The position numbers and the translations under genes are program-made. The notes beneath the pieces are model-generated. The model had not been told where the DNA came from. It saw nothing but the letters and a program-made list of their open reading frames with translations, and searched no databases. From an uncultured bacterium (GTDB lineage: Bacteria > Patescibacteriota > Minisyncoccia > Phycocordibacterales > PALSA-1337): a DNA stretch of 64,000 nucleotides. The DNA is taken from NCBI GenBank assembly GCA_903872035.1, contig CAIQIZ010000009.1:7299-71298 (forward strand), given 5' to 3'. Shown here one piece after another: positions 5,012 through 63,534 of the stretch (within the stretch, counting starts at the first letter, position 1; every line of letters begins with the position of its first letter).

Positions 5012-6769
5012 CTATTGGATTATAGTTTCCGTTGTTGAAGTGGCTATCACGGTGATAGGAAATATCTGACTGACAGGCGTCCACCCTCCAGTGTCATCTT
5101 CTTCCGCAGTCAATAACCAGTATTTTCCACCGTCTATGGTCTGTGACAGATTCGACAGGTCATAATGGAACGAGCCTTGATTGCATTCTAGAGCATTATT
5201 GACTACATATGAAGACGGTTTCTTTTTATAATCCGACTGGTCGCGATATGCGAGAATGACGAAATATTTTCTGGAACAGTTTCCAGAAACAACGAGAGAT
5301 GACCCGATCAAGTTCGGCGAGACTTTTATATTTGAATTCTGATTATATGATTTATCGACTACCGGATCGCCGCCCAAGACAAACGAAACGACTTTTTTTG
5401 TGATAACAGCTGGTGTTGGAGGCGGGGGCTTAATGACGACAGTAGGAGTCGGGGTCGGAGGCGAAGGCGGGGTTGGATCGATTACTGAATATACCGCATC
5501 TGCGGCCGAGGCTAGAGTATCTGACAAGGCTTCTTTCAAAGTCCGATCGTAGCTGACTTTAGCATACATCCCATCCAGATATATATCAGGTTTTTCATCT
5601 AGAGTCGGCAAAGTTGACACCATTATCTGTAGATTATTTAGGTCTTCCCATGAGGAGATCGGTACCGCGATCTTGTAATCCTTCCAGTTGTCCAAACCTA
5701 CCGTGCCTATGCTTACCCATCTCACCCCATCTGTGCTGTAGCTTATTTGAAGGAATGGATTTGATGAGCGTGACGGGTCATCTGTCTCTGCTTCGGCTAT
5801 AGCAGCAAATTTCGTCATGATATTCTCGATGAAGCTCGTTGGACCGGAGTTGACGGTAGAATCTCCCGGAGAAGTTGGCGGAGCTGTCACAGGTGCGGGT
5901 GGTGGAGTATCAGTCGTAGGAGGTAAAGCCGGCGGTGGCGGAGGCGGAGGTGATGATGTGTCAGGAGCAGATGAGGATGGAGGGGAAGATGTATCAGGAG
6001 GAGGCGGCACTTGGCCCGATCCTGTTGATGGGCTAGCGTTTGTAGATGCATCAACATTGCTCGATGTCGAACTTGTAGCAGGACTTGTCGTAGAAGAGGT
6101 GCTTTGAATATTCGGGGTAACAGATGTCGTTGTTGAAGATATGGATGAAGATGATTGGGTCGTGCTTGTACCAAGAGAATTATTTCCCGTGGAAGAAACA
6201 GACGTTGTAGACGTCGTGGTCGACAAGATCATAGGATTATTCGATGAAGATAGGTTGCTTGCCGATGTTGAGGATGAACTGTCCAAGACCATCTTAAGTG
6301 GCGTATAAATCGGTGATGAGGCTCTAAATGCCGGAGATGAACTTGCTTGCAAGGCATTAGTTGTCGATGCGACTGTTGTTGACGCAACGGTATTCCGAGC
6401 CGACATCAAGGAACCTTGACCGATCAACCATTGGAATTGCACAACGACAGCTGTCGGCGGATTCGTAGATTGATCTGTGGAAAAATATCCACAAAATATC
6501 TGGGCAGCAACGGAAGATGCTAGAAATGCAGAATTATATGTAGTATATGAAGATGGTGGATCAGATATCGAAAGGTCCGGTTGCCCGCTGGCATTCTTTG
6601 GATTGCTCCAGCCGCCGAGACAGAAGCTTGGATAAAAAATGGTGCTGGCCGCTCGAACGGAGCGCGGATTTGAGATGATTTTACCAGTCAACAACGCGAT
6701 GAAAACGATTACAATACCAATCAAGGAATATGATACGGTTAAGATGGTATATCGTGTAATTCTCTTCAT
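5012..6769 (-). CDS. mucin-like Ser/Thr/Pro-rich cell-surface protein
   Basis: N-terminal TM anchor; about 150-aa S/T-rich tract followed by PPPPPPPALPPTTDTPPPAPVTAPPTSP proline-rich linker and a C-terminal globular domain. Confidence 0.5.
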   Translation of the reverse strand: MKRITRYTILTVSYSLIGIVIVFIALLTGKIISNPRSVRAASTIFYPSFCLGGWSNPKNASGQPDLSISDPPSSYTTYNSAFLASSVAAQIFCGYFSTDQSTNPPTAVVVQFQWLIGQGSLMSARNTVASTTVASTTNALQASSSPAFRASSPIYTPLKMVLDSSSSTSASNLSSSNNPMILSTTTSTTSVSSTGNNSLGTSTTQSSSSISSTTTSVTPNIQSTSSTTSPATSSTSSNVDASTNASPSTGSGQVPPPPDTSSPPSSSAPDTSSPPPPPPPALPPTTDTPPPAPVTAPPTSPGDSTVNSGPTSFIENIMTKFAAIAEAETDDPSRSSNPFLQISYSTDGVRWVSIGTVGLDNWKDYKIAVPISSWEDLNNLQIMVSTLPTLDEKPDIYLDGMYAKVSYDRTLKEALSDTLASAADAVYSVIDPTPPSPPTPTPTVVIKPPPPTPAVITKKVVSFVLGGDPVVDKSYNQNSNIKVSPNLIGSSLVVSGNCSRKYFVILAYRDQSDYKKKPSSYVVNNALECNQGSFHYDLSNLSQTIDGGKYWLLTAEEDDTGGWTPVSQIFPITVIATSTTETIIQ

Positions 6770-6860
6770 AATATATATAATATCAAAAATACCAACGATG
6801 ATACATGTGTACGAACTATTATATCAATAAAATCTCGCCTGCCCTAATTTACGGATCCGA

Positions 6861-7068: not shown

Positions 7069-7214
7069 CTTGGCGGACAACATCTCCTCACCTCCTCGCA
7101 AGGTCGCCATTCCAAATTGCAGCCGTAGGCGCTTCCAAGGATTCAGCGCCTACGGGCAATTCGTTCATGGCTCAGATCACATTGCGAGTCGGCTCGAATA
7201 TGTTGTCCGCCAAG
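7069..7214 (-). repeat. extended-hairpin structured element, copy 1 (about 146 nt), begins 3 nt after stop of 7218-9515 gene
   Basis: 15-bp perfect closing stem CTTGGCGGACAACAT/ATGTTGTCCGCCAAG; interior about 90 percent identical to 55788-55937 in inverted orientation; internal 11-bp perfect hairpin CCGTAGGCGCT/AGCGCCTACGG. Confidence 0.7.
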
Positions 7215-10417: not shown

Positions 10418-11695
10418 ATGGAAAAACCTATCATCGAAGTCAAGAATCTGAGCAAGAAATATCTCATCAACCATGAGCGAGGTAAATACGTGGCTCTTCG
10501 TGATGTCATCTCCGGTTATTTCCGTAATCCATTTGGCTTCATCAGATCGAAAGTCCGAGCAGCCGCCGGTCTGGAAAAAAAAGAAGAATTTTGGGCCCTA
10601 AGCGATGTTAATTTTTCCGTGAAGAAAGGCGAGGTAGTCGGCGTCATCGGACACAACGGCGCCGGCAAGTCTACCCTATTGAAGATCATCTCGCAGATCA
10701 CGCCACCATCCGATGGAGAGATCATCATCCGCGGTCGCGTCGGGTCGCTCCTCGAAGTCGGCACTGGTTTCCATCCGGAATTGTCCGGCCGCGAGAATAT
10801 TTTCTTGAATGGCGCCATCCTCGGCATGAAGAGAGTGGAGATCGCTGAAAAATTCGACCAGATCGTGGCTTTTGCTGGCATAGAGAAATTCCTGGACACA
10901 CCGGTCAAATATTATTCGAGTGGAATGTATGTGCGTCTTGCCTTCTCTGTCGCCGCCCATATGGAGCCAGACGTACTTTTGGTAGACGAAGTTCTGGCCG
11001 TCGGCGACGCCGAATTCCAAAAGAAATGCCTTGGCAAGATGGACGAGATCACCAAGAAGGAAGGCCGGACCATCCTCTTCGTCAGCCATAACTTGGCGGC
11101 CATCCGCCAACTCTGCAAAAAGACTATCGTCCTCGGCCAAGGAAAGATCGCTTTTTCCGGCGATACCGACAAAGCCATAGAATTCTATATGCGTAATGCT
11201 CCAGAACAGACCAATCACGAAGATCTATCTGACAAAAAAAGAGAGGAGCGGGCAAGAAGGAATGTTCTTTTCACTAAGATATCTTTCCATGGGGCGTCGG
11301 GAGAAACGATGAACCGCGCACAATGCGGACAACCACTGATCGTCAGCTTGGCTTACAAATCCAAGACAAATACGACTCTGGAGAATTGTCGAGCTTCCAT
11401 CTCTTTCAAGACGACTTATGACGAGCTGCTTTTCCTTTGCGCCACAGACTTGGTGAATAAAGATAGGTTCGACTTGGCTCCGGAGGGAGAAATAAAATGC
11501 CGAATAGATAGCCTGCCTCTCCCCAAAGGCCGATATATGATCTCTATATTTTTCCAGGTAAATAATCAAATCGAAGACTGGATAGAGGAAGTGGCCGTCA
11601 TCGATGTTGAGAACGGAGATTTCTTCGGAACAGGTTCGGCACAGACATACCTCGAAGGTTCGAGCGTGCTCGTAAAACATAAATGGCTCCTATGA
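10418..11695 (+). CDS. wzt: ABC transporter ATP-binding protein with C-terminal extra domain (Wzt/TagH-like)
   Basis: Walker [13 protein letters not shown] signature YSSGM, Walker B LLVDE; about 170-aa C-terminal extension beyond the NBD as in Wzt carbohydrate-binding domains. Confidence 0.7.
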
Positions 11696-12396
11696 ACCCA
11701 TTCAACCTAGCTAAAAAAGTCGTTCCATATGTGCGCACGAAGATCTATTTCTTTAAAAAGAATATGGCGCATTCGCGGCAGTATTCGGATATCGATCGAC
11801 TTAGAATTACTTTCTCAAATCACCATCCCCTGCTTCTCCATTTCGGCTGCGGACCTCGCATTCTCAAAGATTGGATCAACATCGATCTCTATAGCGATCC
11901 CGAGAAAAAGAGCTCTAAAGGAAAGGCCGTTGATCTTCCTGCAAAAGAAAGCGGGACAAAGGATGATCTGTTCTGCTTCAATATCACAGAGACGGGCTTG
12001 CCTCTTCCGGACGGATGCGTTGACGCTATCTTTCATGAAGATTTTTTTGAGCATATCGATCAAATGGAACAAGTCATTTTTCTAGCCGAGACTTTACGAG
12101 TCATGAAAAAAGGAGCGGTGCACCGGATAAATTCACCTGATCTGCTGATCTCAATGAGGGATCATTCGGATTTTTCAAAAGGAAAAGATGGTGTGTATAT
12201 CGGCGAATGGAACAATCATGGCCACAAATCAATACCGACACATTCGTATATCAAAGAAATGGCCCTCATGGTTGGCTACAAAGAAGTGCGTTTTAACAGC
12301 CGCAACCAAAGCATCTCGAATTTTATCCCGCAAGAATTCAAACCGGCCAACGACAGGCCTGAAAACGGAAATATCTTCGCAGATCTGATCAAATAA
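11692..12396 (+). CDS. SAM-dependent methyltransferase
   Basis: motif [20 protein letters not shown], acidic motif [11 protein letters not shown]; ATGA overlap with wzt stop (track start 11683 is an upstream alternative). Confidence 0.5.
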
Positions 12397-12430
12397 CCAA
12401 TAGGTGTTCAACTATTAAATCCAATCAACA

Positions 12431-48179: not shown

Positions 48180-50108
48180 TCAATCCACTTTCAACACCTT
48201 TTTGAGGATGTCTTCTGGGACTTCGCTGGCAGCCGCTGGCGCTTTCGGCGCAGGGACTGTCGGTGGTACAACTGGATTTTGAGGCACAATTATTGGTTGA
48301 GCCGCGGGCGGATTTTGACTGACTGGCTTATGAATTTTTCCCTTCCCCAAAACCGCCGCCAAAGCGCTCTTCAGATCGGCGACATTCTTCGGTGATTGAA
48401 CTTTTGGATCCTGCTTTGGGAACAATGGCTTAGGCACCAATGAAGACAATGGAACTGATTGGGCCTTCGGCAACTCAGGCTTGGTAGGCGCCACTTGAAT
48501 CGGCTGGATTTTGGCCGGCTCCACCTTTATCGGCGGGACCTTACTTGGCTCGACTGCGATCGCGGCAGGCTTTACCGGGATCGGGGACGCCGAGGTCACC
48601 ACCGGCATCGTCTTTGCCTTATCTAGAGTCTCCTTCAAATGAGCGAACGGTTTGATGAGCGGCCTCGCAGTGGCTGGGATCGGAGAATGAACTGGATCTG
48701 ATGTCGGTGCCGGCGACTTGCTCGGCTCTCGAACAGCCTGCGGAGCGGCGGTTGCTGAAGGCGCTGACGGAGTTGGAGCTTGGCTTTTTACGATCGGCTT
48801 GACGACCACCGTCGGCTCATGGAACTTCAGGATCTCTGCCTCGACTTGTGCTCTCGGTCTTGCAAACTGTTCACGAGAAGCGTCGATGATCTCTTTGACA
48901 TAAGAGACGTCCGGATGCTCGATGGGCGGCAAGGTAACAGCGGAAAATGGCGGCGATGTGAGACCGTCGATCATCAATTTCAAATATATTTGTGTGAACC
49001 CGAGGTTAACCAAATCTTCGATGACGAATTGTGGAGAGAATTCCTTTTCCAATTCTTCCGCGTCAGTGGCACCGACTCTAAACGTGATCATGGTCCCAAC
49101 GTTGCCGAAGACGGCAGGTCTGACGATCTCATCCATCTGCTCTATATATTGGTGGGCTATGGTCAGGTTCAATTTGTATTTTCTCGCCTCAGAAAGGATG
49201 TCGGCGAATGAGGCGTTGGCAAAGTTCTGGAATTCGTCCACGAATAGATAGAAGTTCGGCAGCATCCGAGCCACACGGTCTGGCGTATCGGCTCGCGACA
49301 TCGCCGCCAGATAGATCTTGGTCACCAACAACCCTCCGAGGAGCTTCATATTCTCATCACCTATCCTTCCCTTCGAGAGGTTGATGATGATGATCTTTCT
49401 GTGATCCATCGCCTCACGGAAATCAAAGGATGAATGCGGCTGGCCGATCATGTTCCTAATGAGCGGATTTGCGGTAAACTGTCCGACTTTGTTTTGGATG
49501 GCCGGAACTGCTTCTGCTGCCATGCGCTCTGTATAGTTGGCGAACTCCTTGACCCAGAAAGTCTTTACCGACGGATCCTGAACATGTGAGATGATCTCCT
49601 TGCGATAATCCTTATCAGAGAGCATCCTGTTCACTCCGAGCAATGTGGTTCCTGGCGCTTCGAGCAAAGCCAAAAGAGTATTAGTCAAAATGTATTCCAT
49701 GCGTGCCGACCAGGCGTCTTCCCAGATCTTTTTGAAAGTGCTCATGAGACCAGAAGCGACCAGATGCCGTTTCTGTGAATCGACGCTTTCCAAAACATTG
49801 AATGAGATCGGATTTTCCACATCGAAAGGAGCGATGTATATGACATCGCGAATGCGCTCTTTGGGGACGTATTCCAAAAGGAGGTCGGCGGTCTTGCCGT
49901 GTGGATCGATGAAACAAATGCCTTCGCCGCCTTGGATATCTTGCACTGCCATATTCTCCAACATGGTGGATTTGCCCATGCCGGTCTTTCCGATGACATA
50001 GACGTGCCTGGTGCGGTCCTTGGCTTTGATACCGAATCTCACCCGCTTATTACGGGCGTCTGTCTGGCCAAAATATGTGATGCGATTTTCGTCCATGATG
50101 AAGATCAA
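48180..50108 (-). CDS. TraD/VirD4/TrwB-like coupling-protein-type P-loop ATPase with about 210-aa Pro/Ala/Val/Lys-rich C-terminal tail
   Basis: Walker A VIGKTGMGKST, Walker B LFVDEFQNF, TIAHQ motif; low-complexity tail PAPTSDPVHSPIPA...PKAPAAAS; probable true start ATG (MDEN) at 50096. Confidence 0.5.
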   Translation of the reverse strand: MIFIMDENRITYFGQTDARNKRVRFGIKAKDRTRHVYVIGKTGMGKSTMLENMAVQDIQGGEGICFIDPHGKTADLLLEYVPKERIRDVIYIAPFDVENPISFNVLESVDSQKRHLVASGLMSTFKKIWEDAWSARMEYILTNTLLALLEAPGTTLLGVNRMLSDKDYRKEIISHVQDPSVKTFWVKEFANYTERMAAEAVPAIQNKVGQFTANPLIRNMIGQPHSSFDFREAMDHRKIIIINLSKGRIGDENMKLLGGLLVTKIYLAAMSRADTPDRVARMLPNFYLFVDEFQNFANASFADILSEARKYKLNLTIAHQYIEQMDEIVRPAVFGNVGTMITFRVGATDAEELEKEFSPQFVIEDLVNLGFTQIYLKLMIDGLTSPPFSAVTLPPIEHPDVSYVKEIIDASREQFARPRAQVEAEILKFHEPTVVVKPIVKSQAPTPSAPSATAAPQAVREPSKSPAPTSDPVHSPIPATARPLIKPFAHLKETLDKAKTMPVVTSASPIPVKPAAIAVEPSKVPPIKVEPAKIQPIQVAPTKPELPKAQSVPLSSLVPKPLFPKQDPKVQSPKNVADLKSALAAVLGKGKIHKPVSQNPPAAQPIIVPQNPVVPPTVPAPKAPAAASEVPEDILKKVLKVD

Positions 50109-53691: not shown

Positions 53692-54930
53692 ATGTCATCA
53701 AACACTACTAAAATCATATATGTCAGCCGAGAGATAGAAAGAGCCTTGGGCACAGCTCCGAGCCAGAATTATCATATAGTTTCCAACCTGACTCCTTACG
53801 GACAAGCCGTCAAGGATCAGTATCCTGATTTCGTCACATTGATAAAGAGCGGCGACACCGACCTTCTCGGAACTACCGACCTTTTGAACCATCCGGAGAC
53901 GTCGAAATTGATCAGCGATGATTCGCGTCTATTGGTATTCAAGAACACCCTGCGAGTCGAGACTGCCGCCAAAGAGAACCATTGGCAGCTTTTGAATCCA
54001 GCAGCCGCTGTCTCAGAAAGAGTCGAGAATAAGCTTTCTCAAGTCCGCTGGCTTGGGACCGTCGGTCAAAAATATCTCCCCTCCCACGCTGTCAAAGTCG
54101 CCAAATTCATCACTTGGAAAGGAGATTCTCCTTTCATAATCCAATGGGCTCACGGCCACACTGGCGATGGAACCATCCTTATCAAAACTGCAGAAGATCT
54201 GCGCGCCCTCCAAGAAAAGTTTCCGGAACGCATGGCCCGCATAACTGGCTTCGTCGATGGACCATCATTTACAGTGAACGTTGTCGTCACTCCAGAACGT
54301 ATCCTCATGGGCAATGTCAGTTACCAGATCACTGGCCTTCAACCATTCACAGACAATGAGTTCAGCACCATAGGCAACGATTGGGGCGCCGCCAAGAAGA
54401 TCCTTTCAACGAGCGACATGCAAACGATCCAAGCCATCACCGCTGAGATTGGACAAAAGATGCAAGCTGACGGCTGGAAAGGCCTGTTCGGCATCGATTT
54501 CATCCGCGAAGAAAAAAGCCAACGTATCTATCTCATAGAAGTAAACGCCCGCCAGCCAGCCTCCTCGACGTTCGAATCATTCTTGCAAGAAGAAGCTCGG
54601 GCTAAAGGAGTCCGTGGATTGACCACTTTTGAAGCTCATATCCGCGCCTTGCTCGGCCTACCCATGGACCAAGACCTGATCGCCATAGATGACGGTGCCC
54701 AGATCATTCAGCGCGTCACCAAGAATGTCCAGAGCATATTCGATGATGCCGGGAAAGAGCTACGCAAGAAAGGCTACACGGTACTCACCTACCAAAACAG
54801 CGCACCAAATTCCGACCTGCTCCGCATCCAATCACCGACCGGCATTTTGGAAAGTCATCGTGTCTTCAATATTAAAGGTAAAGAGATCGCCGAAGCTATC
54901 AAATGCTCGCATTTCAAGATCGAGGTGTAG
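53692..54930 (+). CDS. ATP-grasp superfamily ligase
   Basis: start set at MSSNTTK (track ORF begins inside rsmI); GLFGIDFIREEKSQRIYLIEVNARQP ATP-grasp C-domain motif. Confidence 0.55.
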   Translation: MSSNTTKIIYVSREIERALGTAPSQNYHIVSNLTPYGQAVKDQYPDFVTLIKSGDTDLLGTTDLLNHPETSKLISDDSRLLVFKNTLRVETAAKENHWQLLNPAAAVSERVENKLSQVRWLGTVGQKYLPSHAVKVAKFITWKGDSPFIIQWAHGHTGDGTILIKTAEDLRALQEKFPERMARITGFVDGPSFTVNVVVTPERILMGNVSYQITGLQPFTDNEFSTIGNDWGAAKKILSTSDMQTIQAITAEIGQKMQADGWKGLFGIDFIREEKSQRIYLIEVNARQPASSTFESFLQEEARAKGVRGLTTFEAHIRALLGLPMDQDLIAIDDGAQIIQRVTKNVQSIFDDAGKELRKKGYTVLTYQNSAPNSDLLRIQSPTGILESHRVFNIKGKEIAEAIKCSHFKIEV

Positions 54931-54967: not shown

Positions 54968-55789
54968 TTGCTGATTTTGCGTTACAATAGAACATCACTT
55001 ATGCCCACAGCCACACTCGGAATCAAAGCCCTTTCGATCATCGATCAATACGTCCACTTCAAGTTCGGATCGGCTGTCTGCTCTGTTCCCTATTTCAATA
55101 ACAAGACCGTCGGAGCCAGGGCGGCTCTGCGGGCGACCATAGGCAAAGGCAATCCGAAAGATATCCTGGACGAGGTTCAATCGATCGCCGTAAAGTCTCA
55201 CTTTGATCCAAAAACATTGACTGATGAATCTTTGAAGAAATTTCTAGTAGATCACAATCTTGGCATCGAGTGTTCCGGTTTCGCCTATTACATTTTGAAC
55301 GCTGAATCGGAAGAGCGTGGCAAAGGCGCTTTAGATAAACATCTCCACTTCACCAAAGCTGGAGGCTTTTTCGGAATGGTCCGCACCAGATTACGTCCTG
55401 TTGAGAATTGCGCTGTCGCCACTTTCGCCGACGATAAAAATAGTTCAGCCATTTCACTTAATGACACGCAACCAGGAGACATCATTACCATGCTAAACGA
55501 TGGTAATGAATCTGAGCACGACCATATTTTGATTGTGACCGAAATTGAATTTGAAAATTCCCAATCAAGTTCCAAGCCGACTAAAATCCATTACGCCCAC
55601 GCTGTCGCATATCCAGAAGACGGCCTTCTTGGAACCGGCGTGAAGCAGGGGGTCATTGAAATCAGCGCTGATTCAAATTCAATCACTGATGGTCTCTGGT
55701 CAGAAAATGGATCAACTACAAAAGCTGAACGAATCTTTAATCGCGCAAAGAAATCAAAAACAGAGATCAGAAGATTGAGGTGGTTTTGA
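54968..55789 (+). CDS. hypothetical protein, possible papain-like Cys/His hydrolase
   Basis: candidate catalytic C in IECSGFAYYIL and H in HDHILIVTE about 90 aa apart; weak. Confidence 0.3.
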   Translation: MLILRYNRTSLMPTATLGIKALSIIDQYVHFKFGSAVCSVPYFNNKTVGARAALRATIGKGNPKDILDEVQSIAVKSHFDPKTLTDESLKKFLVDHNLGIECSGFAYYILNAESEERGKGALDKHLHFTKAGGFFGMVRTRLRPVENCAVATFADDKNSSAISLNDTQPGDIITMLNDGNESEHDHILIVTEIEFENSQSSSKPTKIHYAHAVAYPEDGLLGTGVKQGVIEISADSNSITDGLWSENGSTTKAERIFNRAKKSKTEIRRLRWF

Positions 55790-55937
55790 GCTCGGTGGAA
55801 ATGTCTACGAGCCGATTCGCAATGCGATTTGAGCCATGAACAAATTGCCCGTATGAGCTGAATCCCTGGAAGCGCATACGGCTGCAATTTGGAATGGCGA
55901 CCTTGCGAGGAGACGAGGAGACATTTCCATCGAGCTC
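55788..55937 (+). repeat. extended-hairpin structured element, copy 2 (about 150 nt), starts within stop codon of 54968-55789 and lies 42 nt upstream of mraY
   Basis: 18-bp closing stem GAGCTCGGTGGAAATGTC/GACATTTCCATCGAGCTC (one G-U); interior matches reverse complement of 7069-7214. Confidence 0.7.
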
Positions 55938-55979
55938 ATACAAAACACGACTTGAATCAACACCTTTCCGCGTGGTATT

Positions 55980-57134
55980 GTGTTCTCGATGCTTACCATC
56001 CTTCAGGGCACCGCTGATTTAGCCTATATCATGGGTTTTACGCTCATCGGCGCTGTCGTAGCCTTTCTTTGGGCACCATTCCTATCGCGCGCCCTATTAC
56101 GCCTACACGTCATCAAAGGCGTCAAAATTGAGCTAGCAGCCATAGGTAATCAAGCTTACAAAGCCATCACGCCGACTATGGGCGGGCTTCTGGTTGTCAT
56201 AACTGTTGCGCTCGTCACCTATGTCTTGAATTGGTCACGAAGTTTTACTTATGTACCGATCGGCGTCATGCTCATCTCCGCCGCTTTGGGTGCGATCGAC
56301 GACCTGATGAATATCTACGGTTCCGAACGCCGCTCACGAAAGCTAGGACATCAGTTGACACTCATCAAAGTCCATAAAGAATGGAAAATGCGTTTGTGGT
56401 ACATCACTACTTTGCCGTGGACAGCCTTCAAGCGCATGTCCGTCTGGTTCGGTTCACGCACTTCCAAAGGAGTGTTCGTCCACGAAAAGCTCATCCTCCA
56501 ATTCATCGCCGGCGCTCTGACGGCCTACTGGATCTGCGCCAGGCTCGGTCCCGCTTGGCATTTCATATATTTCCCTCACTTCAACCTCTTGCCGCTCGCT
56601 TCTAGCTGGAATGCTGGCATACTCATCGTTCCCATCACGATCCTGATCGTCATGTTCACCGCCAATGCCGTGAACATCGCCGATGGTATGGATGGCTTGG
56701 CCGGCGGCATGCTTATCATGACCTTCAGTGCTTTGACTCTTTTGTCGTGGATCAACGGTTTCGGCGAGATCGCCATCCTGAACGCAACGACGGTTGGAGC
56801 TCTGGTTGCTTATACTTATTTCAATATCAAGCCGGCCCGATTTATTTTTGGCGATGTAGGTTCATTGGGCTTAGGAGCGCTCCTCGCCGTGAACGCCATG
56901 GCTATCGGCGAGACAGCATCTCTGTTCTTCCTTGGCTTCATGTTCTACATCGAAGCTATTTCAGTCGTTCTTCAGATCTTCTCCCGCTACGTCTTCGGCC
57001 GCAAGATCTTCCGCATGGCTCCCCTTCACCACCACTTCGAATTGTCCGGCTGGAGCGAAGAAAAGACCGTCATGAGATTCTGGGTGCTCCACTTCATCTT
57101 TGTGGTCTTCGGATTTTGGTTGGCTCTACACTAA
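55980..57134 (+). CDS. mraY: phospho-N-acetylmuramoyl-pentapeptide transferase
   Basis: TPTMGG, NAVNIADGMDGLA, GDVGSLGLGA, PLHHHFEL. Confidence 0.85.
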   Translation: MFSMLTILQGTADLAYIMGFTLIGAVVAFLWAPFLSRALLRLHVIKGVKIELAAIGNQAYKAITPTMGGLLVVITVALVTYVLNWSRSFTYVPIGVMLISAALGAIDDLMNIYGSERRSRKLGHQLTLIKVHKEWKMRLWYITTLPWTAFKRMSVWFGSRTSKGVFVHEKLILQFIAGALTAYWICARLGPAWHFIYFPHFNLLPLASSWNAGILIVPITILIVMFTANAVNIADGMDGLAGGMLIMTFSALTLLSWINGFGEIAILNATTVGALVAYTYFNIKPARFIFGDVGSLGLGALLAVNAMAIGETASLFFLGFMFYIEAISVVLQIFSRYVFGRKIFRMAPLHHHFELSGWSEEKTVMRFWVLHFIFVVFGFWLALH

Positions 57135-57817
57135 TGAATTACCTTTCCTGGAATCAACACGCTATCACCGACTTCTCGCCTAAAGCGGTGAATGAAATGT
57201 ATGAGAAGGGATACGTTTTCACACGGCTCGGTCGTGGTGTGATGCAGCAGACCAGATCGGTTCGTGTTGATCTGAGCAAGTTTGCGCTTTCAAGCGAAAA
57301 TAGACGTATCTTGAAGAAAGTCCCAAACGTCTCACTTCAGTCAACTAAAGTGCCTATCGTCGACTATAGCTACCCCCTCGGCAAACTAGCCAAGGATTTC
57401 TATGACACAAAGTTCGGTCCAGGAATCATGAGTGCACAAAAGATCAAGGAGATGCTCACCGACCCTTCCAAGAGCAATTTTAATTGTTTACTAAAATTCG
57501 CCCCCGCCGACAGATCAACAACTCATGGTTACACCATCTGTTATGAGAATGAATCATTACTGCACTACTCTTATCCATTTTACGATTTAAAAGAATCTTC
57601 CAAAGATATGGGACTTGGCATGATGATAAGAGCCATCGAATGGGCTAAAGCCGAAGGTAAGAAATTCGTATACCTCGGTTCGCTCCAACGGCCATCCGAC
57701 ACTTACAAGTTGCAATTCGAAGGCCTCGAATGGTTCGATGGTGGCCCAAACGGAACTGGCGCCTGGAAGACCGATTTTGAAGAAGCGAAGAAAATCCTCT
57801 CCAAGCCGACTTTATGA
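57134..57817 (+). CDS. putative aminoacyl-tRNA--protein transferase (Ate1/Bpt-like C-terminal domain) or Fem-like GNAT
   Basis: start at ATG overlapping mraY stop (TAATG); C-terminal KFVYLGS...TYKLQFEGLEWF resembles ATE_C YLGYW..YK..F.P.E motif; track ORF 56747-57817 overlaps mraY. Confidence 0.35.
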   Translation: MNYLSWNQHAITDFSPKAVNEMYEKGYVFTRLGRGVMQQTRSVRVDLSKFALSSENRRILKKVPNVSLQSTKVPIVDYSYPLGKLAKDFYDTKFGPGIMSAQKIKEMLTDPSKSNFNCLLKFAPADRSTTHGYTICYENESLLHYSYPFYDLKESSKDMGLGMMIRAIEWAKAEGKKFVYLGSLQRPSDTYKLQFEGLEWFDGGPNGTGAWKTDFEEAKKILSKPTL

Positions 57818-57827
57818 ACTTTCTAAC
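57809..57827. repeat. left arm of 19-bp perfect inverted repeat bracketing the Mur ligase gene
   Basis: CTTTATGAACTTTCTAACT; reverse complement present at 59286-59304. Confidence 0.65.
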
Positions 57828-57845
57828 TTGTAACTTTCAAACTTT

Positions 57846-59291
57846 ATGAACTTACCTGAACGAATCCATGTAATCGGCATCTGCGGCGTAGCCATGAGCG
57901 CGCTGACTGTCGCCTTCCACAAGCGTGGCGTCAAAGTAACTGGCAGCGACAAAGGATTCTTTCCGCCGATCTCGACCGAGCTTGAGAAACAAGGTGTCCC
58001 CTTTTACGCCGGTTGGCACCCAGAGAAAATGATCGAAGGTGGCAAGCCTGATCTCATCATCGTCGGCACTGCTTCCGGTACGCAAAATCCCGAGACCGCT
58101 TACGCTAAAGAAAACAATATCCCCTGCTTTTCATACCCCGAGATCATCGGTAAATATTTCGTCAAAGAGCATTCCGTTGTGTGTGCCGGGACTTGGGGAA
58201 AGACATCTTCTTCGGCACTTCTTTCCTTCATTCTCGAACAGGCCGGTTTTGATCCATCATACATGTTCGGTGGAGTATCTCTTTCCCACGGATCAGCCGC
58301 CAAGCTGACCGATTCATCTTGGAGCGTTTTTGAGGGCGACGAATACAAGAGTTCGCCCAGCGATTCTCGAGCGAAATTTTTCCATTACAAGCCTACGGAA
58401 TTGTTATTGACTGCCGTCTCCTGGGACCACGCCGATCTGTATCCGACTGAGGCTGAGTATTTCGATGCTTTCAAAAAGTTGCTAGTTGAGATGCCCTCTA
58501 CGGGATCGGTCGTCGCATGCGCAGATAACGAGGGGGTCATGAAGATCATCGATTCGTTTAAGGGCAAAGTGGTGCTTTACGGTCGCGCGCGACCAACTAC
58601 AGAGTTCAGACCTATACAAGGTGCAGAGGTTAAACCTCTGCAGTACACCTACAAGAATGTCTCTCAATCGAATCAGGGATTGAAATTGACCATAATCCAT
58701 GACGGACAAGAATTTCAAATCGAGTCGCCCATGCTCGGCTTATTCCAAGTCGAGAACATTACCGGCTGTTTTGCCATGGCTAGTGAATTGGGAGTCGAGC
58801 CAAAGAAGATCATCGAGGCAATTTCTAAATTCAAAGGCCTAAAAAGAAGGATGGAAAAGAGGCTCGACGGTGGCGGCATCACCGTCATAGACGACATTGC
58901 TCATTCACCGGAAAAAGCTTCGGCTGTCTTGAATACTTTGCGATCAATCTACGATGGCAAGATAATCGCAGTCTTCGAACCTAATAGCGGCGGACGAGAA
59001 CGTGGTGCAGCCACAAAATACGACAATGCTTTCAGGGACGCAGATACAGTGATCATCCCAAGGCTAACAAAACTTAAAATCGCAGAAAATGAATCAGACC
59101 CACCCATTGAAGGTGCCGAATTGGCAACAATCATCAGCGACGCGCACCCTGATTCACTCTATATGGAAGACGACGCTGAACTGATAAAGTTCTTGGTTTC
59201 AGATACAAAAAAAGGCGATGTCATCGCTTTCCTCGGGTCGCATGGATTCAGAGGGATGATTGAGGAAACAGTTAGAAAGTTAACAAGTTAG
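57846..59291 (+). CDS. murC: Mur ligase, UDP-N-acetylmuramate--L-alanine ligase (MurC) or murein-peptide ligase (Mpl)
   Basis: IHVIGICGVAMSALT...VTGSD N-terminal MurC/Mpl domain (GICG is Mpl-like), GTWGKTSSSALL P-loop. Confidence 0.6.
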   Translation: MNLPERIHVIGICGVAMSALTVAFHKRGVKVTGSDKGFFPPISTELEKQGVPFYAGWHPEKMIEGGKPDLIIVGTASGTQNPETAYAKENNIPCFSYPEIIGKYFVKEHSVVCAGTWGKTSSSALLSFILEQAGFDPSYMFGGVSLSHGSAAKLTDSSWSVFEGDEYKSSPSDSRAKFFHYKPTELLLTAVSWDHADLYPTEAEYFDAFKKLLVEMPSTGSVVACADNEGVMKIIDSFKGKVVLYGRARPTTEFRPIQGAEVKPLQYTYKNVSQSNQGLKLTIIHDGQEFQIESPMLGLFQVENITGCFAMASELGVEPKKIIEAISKFKGLKRRMEKRLDGGGITVIDDIAHSPEKASAVLNTLRSIYDGKIIAVFEPNSGGRERGAATKYDNAFRDADTVIIPRLTKLKIAENESDPPIEGAELATIISDAHPDSLYMEDDAELIKFLVSDTKKGDVIAFLGSHGFRGMIEETVRKLTS

Positions 59292-59304
59292 AAAGTTCAT
59301 AAAG
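59286..59304. repeat. right arm of 19-bp perfect inverted repeat (covers Mur ligase stop codon)
   Basis: AGTTAGAAAGTTCATAAAG = reverse complement of 57809-57827; additional 12-mer copies at 59270, 59317, 57841, 59327. Confidence 0.65.
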
Positions 59305-59349
59305 TCCACAAGACTCAACTTTCTAACTTTATGAACTTGTAACTTTTCA

Positions 59350-59544
59350 CTATTTCCCTTCGTCCACAATAACAGTCTTGATATTCCCGTTGGCTATTTC
59401 CTTGACCAAAAGAGTCATGCCACAATGGTTGCATTCGATGACCATCCCTGGCGCTATATTCGGATACCTTCCAAGATCTATGGTATTTTTGCACTCCGGA
59501 CAAACACAGAGTGAATTTGATGATTCTGTTCTTTCGCTGATCAT
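59350..59544 (-). CDS. small zinc-ribbon protein (LysW-like)
   Basis: CPEC...(17 aa)...CNHCG two CxxC pairs with LysW-like spacing, ID-LG and V-E-I-xCxxCG context. Confidence 0.4.
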   Translation of the reverse strand: MISERTESSNSLCVCPECKNTIDLGRYPNIAPGMVIECNHCGMTLLVKEIANGNIKTVIVDEGK

Positions 59545-60501: not shown

Positions 60502-60539
60502 GGTTCAGGAGCAAGGAGGAATCAGGAAGGAGCAAGATA

Positions 60540-60902: not shown

Positions 60903-60956
60903 ATTATTCCTCCTTCCTCCTTCCTCCTTCCTCCTTCCTCCTTCCTCCTTCCTCCT
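60903..60956 (-). repeat. (AAGGAGG)x7 tandem heptamer directly 5' of four-helix-bundle start codon
   Basis: plus strand CCTCCTT repeated about 7 times ending 60956; reads as seven consecutive Shine-Dalgarno cores on the coding (minus) strand. Confidence 0.8.
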
Positions 60957-60960
60957 TGCC

Positions 60961-62675: not shown

Positions 62676-62763
62676 TTTAGTTGGGAGGAAGGAGTAAGGA
62701 GGAAGAAGGAAGGAGAATCACAGTGTGGTTCCTCCTTTCTTCTCGCTCCGTCCTCCTTGCTCC
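62676..62763 (-). promoter_or_regulatory. purine-rich/pyrimidine-rich imperfect hairpin (SD-rich arm vs anti-SD arm) in 5' leader of 62313-62675
   Basis: plus strand GGAGGAAGGAGTAAGGAGGAAGAAGGAAGGAG ... CCTCCTTTCTTCTCGCTCCGTCCTCCTTGCTCCTT. Confidence 0.5.
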
Positions 62764-63534
62764 TTATGAATAATTAACTGGTACGCTTACGAACCCATCT
62801 TTTGTGATGATGACATGATCTAACAAGTGGATGCCCAGGATCTTCCCCGCCTGGACAAGCCGTTCGGTAATTCTAACATCTTCGTCGCTAGCCGCAAGGT
62901 TCCCTGAAGGGTGATTGTGGGCCAAAATAACAGCTACTGCGCTGGATTCCAATCCGACTCGAAAGACTTCCTTTGGTTCGACGATATTGGAATCGACGCT
63001 GCCTATGGAGATCACTTCGTTTCTGATGACTCTATTTTGGCTATTCAAGAACAATGCGCGCAAATATTCTTTTGGCAGATTGCGCATATCGGTCAGGTGT
63101 TCGAAAACGTCTTTGGCATTCCTGATGACAGTGAATCCGTAGTCGTGTCGATCATATATACGCCTTCCCATCTCGCCGACAGCCACGATCTGGCAAGCTT
63201 TGACTATCGGGATGTTCGACTCCTCGGAAAGTCGAGTAGCATCGCGCTCGAAGAGGACGCTTTTTTCACCATAGTTATGGATGACGCGCTCGGCCATCTC
63301 CAAAACATCTTCCTTGACGGTACCGGTAGTAAATACGAGTGCCAGCAATTCCTGTAGAGTCAGAGCCTCTGGACCTGAAGCTAAAAGCTTTTCTCGAGGC
63401 TTCTTTTCCGACGGGAGGTCGCGAATAAGCGACGGATATTCTCTAGTCGCCTGATTGGCCGCGCCAGCCGCATTTTTCGGCTTGTGGCTCAAAATGAAGG
63501 GTTCGCTATGAATGATGTAATTTGTGGTTGGCAT
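62764..63534 (-). CDS. radC: RadC-family JAB/MPN-domain protein
   Basis: HNHPSGNLAASDED JAMM-like motif; N-terminal helix-hairpin-helix region LQELLALVF. Confidence 0.75.
   Translation of the reverse strand: MPTTNYIIHSEPFILSHKPKNAAGAANQATREYPSLIRDLPSEKKPREKLLASGPEALTLQELLALVFTTGTVKEDVLEMAERVIHNYGEKSVLFERDATRLSEESNIPIVKACQIVAVGEMGRRIYDRHDYGFTVIRNAKDVFEHLTDMRNLPKEYLRALFLNSQNRVIRNEVISIGSVDSNIVEPKEVFRVGLESSAVAVILAHNHPSGNLAASDEDVRITERLVQAGKILGIHLLDHVIITKDGFVSVPVNYS

Follow-up and report, generated by a model that had tools for sequence, protein, structure and literature searches.

The gene for a MurC/Mpl-type Mur ligase in an uncultured Patescibacteriota bacterium stands between the two arms of a perfect inverted repeat, and the locus raises the question of why a cell-wall gene should be bracketed in this way. 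The gene lies in a stretch of 64,000 nucleotides (64 kb, hereafter the window) of contig CAIQIZ010000009.1 (assembly GCA_903872035.1). A first-pass annotation of the window had offered three possible explanations: a repeated operator for a regulator acting at both ends of the gene, remnants of a mobile or invertible cassette, or sequence convergence because the motif encodes the start context. An essential cell-wall gene as a cassette would have been striking; the evidence says otherwise. We give a probability of about 0.5 to the following joint reading: the inverted repeat is a by-product of three locus-private blocks of ~8-nt units at the two ends of the gene, these blocks were generated in place, and the two downstream blocks act together as an RNA hairpin.

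The inverted repeat of 19 bp described previously was found again, with CTTTATGAACTTTCTAACT at 57810-57828 (one position to the right of the 57809-57827 given before) and its reverse complement at 59286-59304. A repeat finder extended the perfect match to 24 nt, 57808-57831 (GACTTTATGAACTTTCTAACTTGT) and 59283-59306, with 1451 nt between the arms (57832-59282); when one indel is allowed, the inverted repeat reaches 37/40 matches (blastn-short). The recurring 12-mers were also recovered: CTTTATGAACTT at 57810, 57842 (previously 57841) and 59327, and inverted at 59293; AGTTAGAAAGTT at 59270 and 59286, and inverted at 59317. The inverted repeat is far beyond chance. With up to 3 mismatches the 19-mer was observed twice, against 0.04 expected per window in shuffles, and the 13-mer ACTTTATGAACTT with up to 2 mismatches was present 6 times (1.3 expected). 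Two-unit clusters of AACTT/AAGTT numbered 9 in the window, all within the three blocks, where 0.43 would be expected.

All three blocks are AT-rich and share the same build, units of ~8 nt with a conserved AACTT core and spacers of 2-4 nt. The left block (57808-57853, plus strand) reads GACTT-TATG-AACTT-TCT-AACTT-GT-AACTT-TCA-AACTT-TATG-AACTT; it is in sense orientation, includes the 24-nt arm at 57808-57831 and takes up the 28-nt spacer that separates the ligase gene from the gene upstream. Arm A (59267-59306) has AACTT-type units on the minus strand (AAGTT on the plus strand), includes the right 24-nt arm (59283-59306), spans the last 8 ligase codons plus the stop codon, and contains a 16-nt tandem duplication (59270-59285 and 59286-59301). 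Arm B (59317-59347, plus strand) reads AACTT-TCT-AACTT-TATG-AACTT-GT-AACTT and pairs with arm A, so that the two arms make up an imperfect long hairpin (59263-59351, both strands), which begins in the last ligase codons and ends at the stop of a zinc-ribbon gene convergent with the ligase gene. Head-to-tail short units beyond chance, as in long simple sequence repeats, were reported by Tandem Repeats Finder (TRF) at all three sites, with period 8 and 3.8 copies at 57817, 3.5 copies at 59270 and 3.5-3.8 copies at 59317. The first half of the left block matches the reverse complement of arm A at 37/40 positions, and its second half (57832-57853) is identical to arm B at 21/22. When the order of units was reshuffled in both blocks, a match of 24 nt or longer was obtained in only 2.2% of the trials, which indicates that the blocks are homologous and were not independently assembled.

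The blocks are closely fitted to the gene boundaries. The upstream gene, an ATE_C-like (arginyltransferase-like) gene, ends with the codons CCG ACT TTA TGA inside the left arm, so the overlap of this arm with the upstream stop codon (TGA, 57815-57817) stands as described. Its supposed overlap with the ligase start does not: the ATG at 57814 opens a mini-ORF (ORF, open reading frame), and the ligase gene starts at 57846, within the second copy of the 12-mer, from where the N-terminus MNLPERIHVIGICG aligns with the family consensus. At the other end, the right arm does overlap the ligase stop codon (TAG, 59289-59291). The mini-ORF has 11 codons (MNFLTCNFQTL*, 57814-57849, plus strand, read from the sequence); its ATG overlaps the upstream TGA and its TGA overlaps the ligase ATG, in both cases as ATGA. 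Because the 13-mer ACTTTATGAACTT is present twice in the left block (57809 and 57841, 32 nt apart), the ATGA overlap occurs at both the upstream-gene/mini-ORF and the mini-ORF/ligase junctions. The earlier idea of convergence from the start context is right insofar as both left 13-mers carry an ATGA stop/start, and wrong insofar as the blocks, matching at 37/40, were copied from one another. As the origin of the left block we also considered a simple tandem duplication of 32 nt and rejected it, the 19 nt following each 13-mer agreeing at only 6/19 positions.

The unit family appears to be private to this locus. No AACTT/AAGTT two-unit cluster was found outside the three blocks in the 64-kb window and a further 5.3 kb of the contig (~69 kb together), and within these ~69 kb the motif is thus not a frequent, generic AT-rich repeat, a possibility that the first-pass annotation had raised against its own suggestion. 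The 24-mer was not found in viral contigs. We also considered a DNA-uptake sequence; AACTT occurs 61 times and AAGTT 56 times in 64 kb, about the random expectation, and the idea was dropped.

Are the 24-bp arms recombination sites between which the ligase gene flips or moves? The geometry would suit such a role, as a perfect 24-nt inverted repeat around 1451 nt is inverton-like in size and layout, and an inversion would leave both affected proteins unaltered because both stop codons lie inside the arms. The junction of an inverted form would read GACTTTATGAACTTTCTAACTTGT followed by GTTAACTTTCTAACTGTTTCC, i.e., ...CTAACTTGT joined to GTTAACTTTCTAACTGTTTCC. Nevertheless, a search for recombinase or invertase genes, which had been proposed as a check, found no recombinase, invertase or transposase domain among the annotated window genes (64 kb; several ORFs have no Pfam match at all). 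The enclosed gene encodes a Mur ligase, no transposase, and there is no further copy of an arm in ~69 kb. The exact ligase protein is present on at least 19 contigs from different samples; four readable independent assemblies are 100% identical and agree in the orientation of the gene, and the gene order of a fifth matches theirs, although assemblies display the majority form only. Array copy number does not vary between these assemblies either, the four readable ones being identical across both array families (the second family is described below). There is no target-site duplication, as the flanks (AAGCC on the left and CACAAG on the right) have no sequence in common; the arms belong to wider repeat blocks instead of forming discrete sites, and in orthologous loci without repeats the ligase gene fills the same syntenic slot. 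A genuine insertion sequence (IS) with 31-nt terminal inverted repeats, found in one of the compared loci (L058), looks quite different. We concluded that a mobile or invertible cassette is highly improbable at this locus.

To place the arrays in their phylogenetic setting, we compared the locus with 80 loci from other species (55-71% protein identity) and with the closest relative (72%). Synteny of the ATE_C-like gene, the ligase gene, the convergent zinc-ribbon gene and the PALP gene is kept wherever the neighbours were inspected, and so is the orientation of the ligase gene. Alignment of orthologous loci, another check proposed beforehand, gave a mixed outcome: most of the 80 loci, including the closest relatives L005 and L205 (P0001), have no repeats at the ligase gene, but the bracket is not absent everywhere, since L006 and L007 show brackets made of their own sequence. 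L006 has GACTTTAT units and an inverted repeat of 31 nt (90%), and L007 has AATGATCAAT units and an inverted repeat of 41 nt (90%), compared with AACTT units and 24/24 in the window. A scan of 478 ORFs for complementarity between 5' and 3' flanks gave a background score of 13 or less and six outliers: the three ligase genes (window, L006 and L007), the PALP gene in L020 and L032, and an IS-like ORF in L058. Around the two PALP genes, copies of a palindromic spacer element lie on either side of the gene; in L032 this element has a short-unit build and is present in three to four neighbouring spacers. L058 was set aside as a parallel case because the enclosed ORF is an ordinary IS-like element, namely a 307-aa ORF (5799-6784) between perfect 31-nt inverted repeats (AGAGGTATCCCCGCACGGCCTAATTTGCTGA) in a Parcubacteria genome. 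L020 and L058, two Paceibacterota genomes, also have in common a G+C-rich hairpin repeat (TGTCATTCCCGCGAAAGCGGGAATCC...; L020 4709-4772 and 5662-5726, L058 4414-4505 and 5001-5031), which by its sequence and its presence in several spacers resembles a dispersed family of the repetitive extragenic palindromic (REP) type.

The spacer downstream of the ligase gene gives an indication of how such repeats arise. The distance from the ligase gene to the zinc-ribbon gene is below 25 nt in 43/66 loci. The remaining 23 loci have longer spacers, 13 of which are strongly palindromic (z of -4.6 or lower), each with a different sequence, and five of the palindromic spacers have perfect arms of 32-43 nt. 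The pair L037 and L039 is the most instructive: L037 (4403-4529) contains a perfect palindrome of 32 nt. Its left arm takes in the native end of the ligase gene (last codons and stop), homologous to L039; its right arm is an extra segment missing in L039 and the reverse complement of the native gene-end sequence. From this comparison, the palindromes of this clade arise by inverted duplication of local sequence and not by foreign insertion. At the upstream end, the tail of the upstream gene is equally long in L005 and L205 (5 residues after ...KKIL), and the L005 spacer at the position of the left block is 32 nt, similar to the 28 nt of the window; both points argue for a left block that changed in place.

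These comparisons suggest a mechanism in which slippage-type amplification of native gene-boundary sequence (the stop/start junction, the last codons or the Shine-Dalgarno motif) would build the arrays, and inverted duplication would carry array copies into the same or the adjoining spacer. Wherever complementary copies came to lie in neighbouring spacers, the gene in between would appear bracketed, and the perfect 24-mer would be the mark of recent copying. Judged by their sequence, the arrays look as if they were seeded from native gene-boundary sequence. Their origin as locally generated simple-sequence arrays, through slippage and inverted duplication, is in part demonstrated and in part inferred.

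The ligase bracket does not stand alone in the window. A second private family begins 1.2 kb downstream, with copy 1 (AGGAGCAAGGAGGAATCAGGAAGGAGCAAG, GGAGCAA/GGAGGAA units; 60507-60536, plus strand) in the spacer between the PALP and IVP genes. Copy 2 (60907-60957) is a perfect (TTCCTCC)x7.3 array (TRF); read on its minus strand, it consists of seven tandem GGAGGAA Shine-Dalgarno-like units that end 4 nt before the ATG of the 23S-rRNA-IVP-family gene. Copies 3 and 4 (62676-62766, both strands), GGAGGAA x4.6 and CTCCTTG x4.9 in inverted arrangement, lie between the RadC gene and a 120-aa gene and form a hairpin (fold -51.3 and -41.1 kcal/mol, z about -8), with the inverted pair at 62684-62765. 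Taking both families together, 5/7 spacers between 57.8 and 62.8 kb contain arrays, and within each family the orientation alternates from block to block. The IVP gene, and also the MurD-like gene together with the 120-aa gene, stand between complementary second-family arrays, so that the ligase bracket exemplifies a pattern of the region. The IVP gene has a bAvd-like match, which brought up the idea of a diversity-generating retroelement; it was rejected, there being no reverse transcriptase and no pair of template and variable repeats.

The diversity of units bears on the suggestion of an operator. By analogy, the AACTT units at the two gene ends could be bound cooperatively by a small DNA-binding protein, in the style of ribbon-helix-helix operators. 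A conserved 5-nt core with variable spacers of 2-4 nt in both orientations is what such sites would look like, and a periodicity of 7-8 bp is known from MetJ metboxes, omega heptads and ParG boxes. Related (G/A)ACTTTAT units are present upstream of the ligase gene in four lineages (window, L006, L033 and L045). This likeness across lineages is explained, however, by the first units coinciding with native coding sequence, and wholly different units occupy the same place in L007, L030, L032 and L058. The use of other unit sequences by the relatives, and of a second, unrelated unit family in adjoining spacers of the same small genome, weakens the operator reading further. The arrays are not linked to any gene for a candidate regulator; the neighbouring zinc-ribbon gene is present in 66/81 loci, most of them without an array. 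Protein-binding arrays therefore seem an improbable explanation.

Regarding function, we infer from the predicted folds that the A:B palindrome forms an RNA hairpin where two convergent transcripts have their 3' ends, and that it may act there in termination or in 3'-end protection. Its calculated fold is -25.3 kcal/mol (z -3.7) for plus-strand RNA and -27.2 kcal/mol (z -4.7) for minus-strand RNA. No local hairpin is predicted for the left block (-1.3 kcal/mol, z +0.7), and this upstream copy would be an unstructured U/A-rich leader without a Shine-Dalgarno motif that keeps the ATGA coupling through the 11-codon mini-ORF.

Several observations weigh against the reading of locally made arrays with a downstream hairpin. 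Pure slippage would not be expected to give a conserved core with variable spacers, and 1.45 kb is long for template switching. The private status of the AACTT family covers ~69 kb of the contig, and none of the metagenome matches listed (see below) is from the source genome, so that it may have further copies elsewhere. A consensus scan of 59260-59350 found no canonical terminator (G+C-rich stem plus T run); the A:B stem is AT-rich and long, with only TTTT after arm B, and the scan for canonical promoters and terminators gave no convincing site at any block. Downstream of the ligase gene, both spacer and hairpin are missing in most orthologues. In all three lineages with a bracketed ligase gene, the long-range duplex exceeds the local hairpin, and the alternating orientation together with the stronger long-range complementarity would also fit selection for pairing.

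The last point leads to an alternative in which the left block and arm A enclose the ligase ORF in a ~37-bp stem of a read-through transcript, and in which this pairing is functional. Such a stem might block the ligase start until it is melted by ribosomes that complete the upstream gene and the mini-ORF, resulting in translational coupling, or it might be a processing site for a double-strand-specific enzyme in the style of the stems that bracket rRNA, with arm B competing for arm A. The modelled energies are consistent with such a role: the long-range left:A duplex reaches -45.5 kcal/mol and the local A:B hairpin -21.2 kcal/mol in the window, and the ranking is the same in L006 (-50.5 and -38.7 kcal/mol) and L007 (-43.9 and -20.0 kcal/mol) despite their differing sequences. 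The left partner ends 2 nt before the ligase start codon, the second family brackets the IVP gene (-48.9 kcal/mol) and the MurD-like plus 120-aa genes (-65.3 kcal/mol) in minus-strand RNA, and orientation alternates in both families. Shine-Dalgarno motifs are rare in this genome (7/56 ORFs), which makes structure-based control plausible. On the other hand, the geometry is not conserved in L007, where a likely -10 box (TATACT, 9 nt before the ATG) follows the left arm and the pairing partner of this arm is the other arm of the hairpin; arm A, which holds the last 8 ligase codons, belongs to the translated sequence; and the pairing is missing in the closest relatives and in most of the 80 orthologous loci. 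Moreover, only recent copies are detectable, which biases what is seen toward near-perfect long-range matches. We consider functional long-range pairing possible but doubtful. A broader proposition is unlikely: private arrays that alternate across spacers would be selected ORF-enclosing RNA stems setting cistron coupling, processing or lifetime in the Shine-Dalgarno-poor, leaderless-rich cell-wall operons of Patescibacteria, each lineage reinventing the stem with its own unit.

Next, we examined whether similar arrays are present elsewhere. A metagenome scan for a pattern of four AACTT units gave at least 80 loci; among the matches listed, which belong to other organisms (tetranucleotide correlation to the window of 0.70 or less), none has the ligase gene and none is from this genome. 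Many of those listed are degenerate arrays of the same style, often [AAGTT]n[AACTT]n between co-directional genes, for example in L111, where the array is flanked by an ORF of 172 aa and by a gene of DnaK type, recognised by its N-terminal sequence only. As the matches were selected by pattern, the positions of their arrays are suggestive only. Three of the matched loci deserve mention in their own right. In L145 an AAGTT-unit array (10963-11010) lies between ORFs of 137 and 289 aa that, from their sequence, resemble two halves of a phosphomannomutase/phosphoglucomutase-type protein, and a second array (12372-12417) provides the terminal codons (KKLIS*), with the stop, of an ORF that resembles a sugar-phosphate isomerase; the window ligase has a C-terminus of RKLTS* and ends in the same manner. 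In L092 and L136 the AACTT arrays end directly before sequences that resemble the 5' ends of tRNA genes.

The metagenome arrays have a bearing on a further possibility, that only the left block matters and its sense AACUU(U) units are a translation enhancer or a weak promoter of a (nearly) leaderless ligase mRNA, the other copies being incidental. Among the matches listed, AACTT arrays located 20 nt or less before the ATG of a long ORF are in sense orientation in 17 cases and antisense in 4, and several ORFs begin with ATGAAC within the last unit. In addition, TTAACTTTA serves as a translational enhancer in expression vectors (PMC10011478), TAACTGA repeats are found just upstream of starts in Beggiatoaceae (PMC4679880), and the TAnnnT hexamer TAACTT (57831-57836) precedes the ATG by 9 nt, a position at which many genes of this genome and of the orthologues have a -10 box. 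This reading leaves the two downstream copies and the perfect complementarity unexplained, the match to known motifs is partial, and the metagenome matches carry the selection by pattern and the lack of this genome already mentioned. As a reading of the sequence, a left-block expression signal appears distinctly unlikely to account for the locus.

The neighbourhood of the repeat is that of a cell-wall gene cluster, in the order MraY-like, ATE_C-like, ligase, zinc-ribbon, PALP enzyme, IVP protein and MurD-like. The ATE_C-like gene (57134-57817, plus strand) encodes 227 aa with weak matches to Pfam ATE_C and to the NCBIfam arginyltransferase family. The ligase gene (57846-59291, plus strand) encodes 481 aa with all three Mur ligase Pfam domains, in support of the murC/mpl-like identity proposed at first; with scores of 262 bits (murC) and 229 bits (mpl), both under the curated cut-offs, the premise that it is an essential gene is soft. 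It has 2962 homologues, the best named ones being from Paceibacterota, the group to which this bacterium belongs. The convergent zinc-ribbon gene (59350-59544, minus strand) encodes 64 aa and was recognised at this position in 66/81 loci. One relative encodes a fusion of the ATE_C-like domain with the Mur ligase (P0049, 687 aa, JGI), which suggests, from sequence, a functional link between the two adjacent genes. The remainder of the window is largely a glycosylation cluster, adjoined by a gene for a TraG/TrwB-like coupling protein (48180-50108, minus strand; DUF87, TrwB_AAD_bind). The window has no tRNA genes and no Rfam match at gathering thresholds.

Two further features of the window were noted. 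At many window genes, a TAnnnT box (TATACT, TAGACT, TATAAT or TACAAT) precedes the ATG by 6-9 nt with no Shine-Dalgarno motif, for example at the starts at 53692, 10418, 15998, 46810, 62298, 31539 and 37766, and in most orthologous loci the ligase gene likewise has (A)GCTATACT or TGTATAAT before its ATG; these boxes suggest that leaderless mRNAs may be widespread in the clade. An element of ~135 nt is present in two copies that are ~91% identical, one upstream of the MraY-like gene (55795-55930, plus strand) and the other beside a Wzy_C/TPR gene (7074-7209, minus strand). It folds into a long rod (consensus -58.7 kcal/mol) in which seven base pairs, mostly in the outer stem, are preserved by two-sided changes, and it has no Rfam match (none at 55700-56000 with E up to 1); going by the modelled fold, a structured RNA and a palindromic spacer element are both conceivable.

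The locus suggests that compact Paceibacterota genomes fill their few spacers with short-unit arrays and perfect palindromes built on the spot, and that gene-bracketing inverted repeats are a side effect of such locally made arrays. In practice, these repeats would yield false positives in screens of candidate-phyla genomes for invertons and miniature inverted-repeat transposable elements. They would also mark sites that may determine the ends of transcripts or the coupling of cistrons, in organisms about whose expression signals hardly anything is known. If the long-range complementarity turned out to be selected, it would be a new way to control single cistrons.

Among known systems, invertons and shufflons are similar to the locus in the perfect 24-nt inverted repeat around 1.45 kb and in a repeat orientation that alternates along the region; they differ in that no recombinase was found in the window, that the assemblies read show a single orientation, that the arms overlap the coding ends of two genes within longer blocks, and that the enclosed gene is conserved and syntenic. 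Long-range RNA pairings that enclose or couple cistrons are known from rRNA processing stems and from the long-distance pairing in RNA phage genomes. The ligase flanks are comparable to these in being complementary over ~37 nt, with a 5' partner that abuts the start codon, but the pairing in the window is only predicted, its geometry is not conserved in L007 and most orthologues do not have it. Quasi-palindrome or template-switch duplication is a closer parallel, since L037, compared with L039, has a 32-nt reverse-complement copy beside its source and five relatives have perfect 32-43-nt arms; at 1.45 kb, however, the best-matching copies of the window lie far apart for a classical intramolecular template switch, and either copy could be the source.

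REP palindromes and bacterial interspersed mosaic elements (BIMEs) are likewise confined to spacers at convergent or co-directional junctions and able to form RNA hairpins at 3' ends, and copies on two sides automatically bracket a gene, as do the TTCCCGCGAAAGCGGGAA hairpins in L020. The window does have a hairpin-forming palindrome outside genes (59263-59351), though arm A overlaps the last 8 ligase codons. It is not a dispersed high-copy family, with 0 other copies in ~69 kb; no gene like those of REP-associated tyrosine transposases (RAYT) was seen; the element is AT-rich and modular in contrast to a fixed G+C-rich stem, and the upstream copy is half an element. Short-unit intergenic repeats just upstream of start codons have been described, and simple repeats of 5-11 nt were attributed to slippage (PMC4679880). 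The long simple sequence repeats of that work (cyanobacterial heptamers and the TAACTGA repeats of Beggiatoaceae) resemble the window arrays in their tandem 7-9-nt units in intergenic spacers, often a few nt before Shine-Dalgarno-less starts, in their attribution to slippage, and in a role that is at most suggested to be post-transcriptional (PMC4679880). In contrast, the window units are degenerate (a fixed 5-nt core with a variable spacer) and private to one locus instead of genome-wide, and their copies are opposed in neighbouring spacers, where they form hairpins and gene-bracketing inverted repeats. The feature is thus kin to simple-sequence repeats and extragenic palindromes, and its gene-bracketing arrangement is a recurring one.

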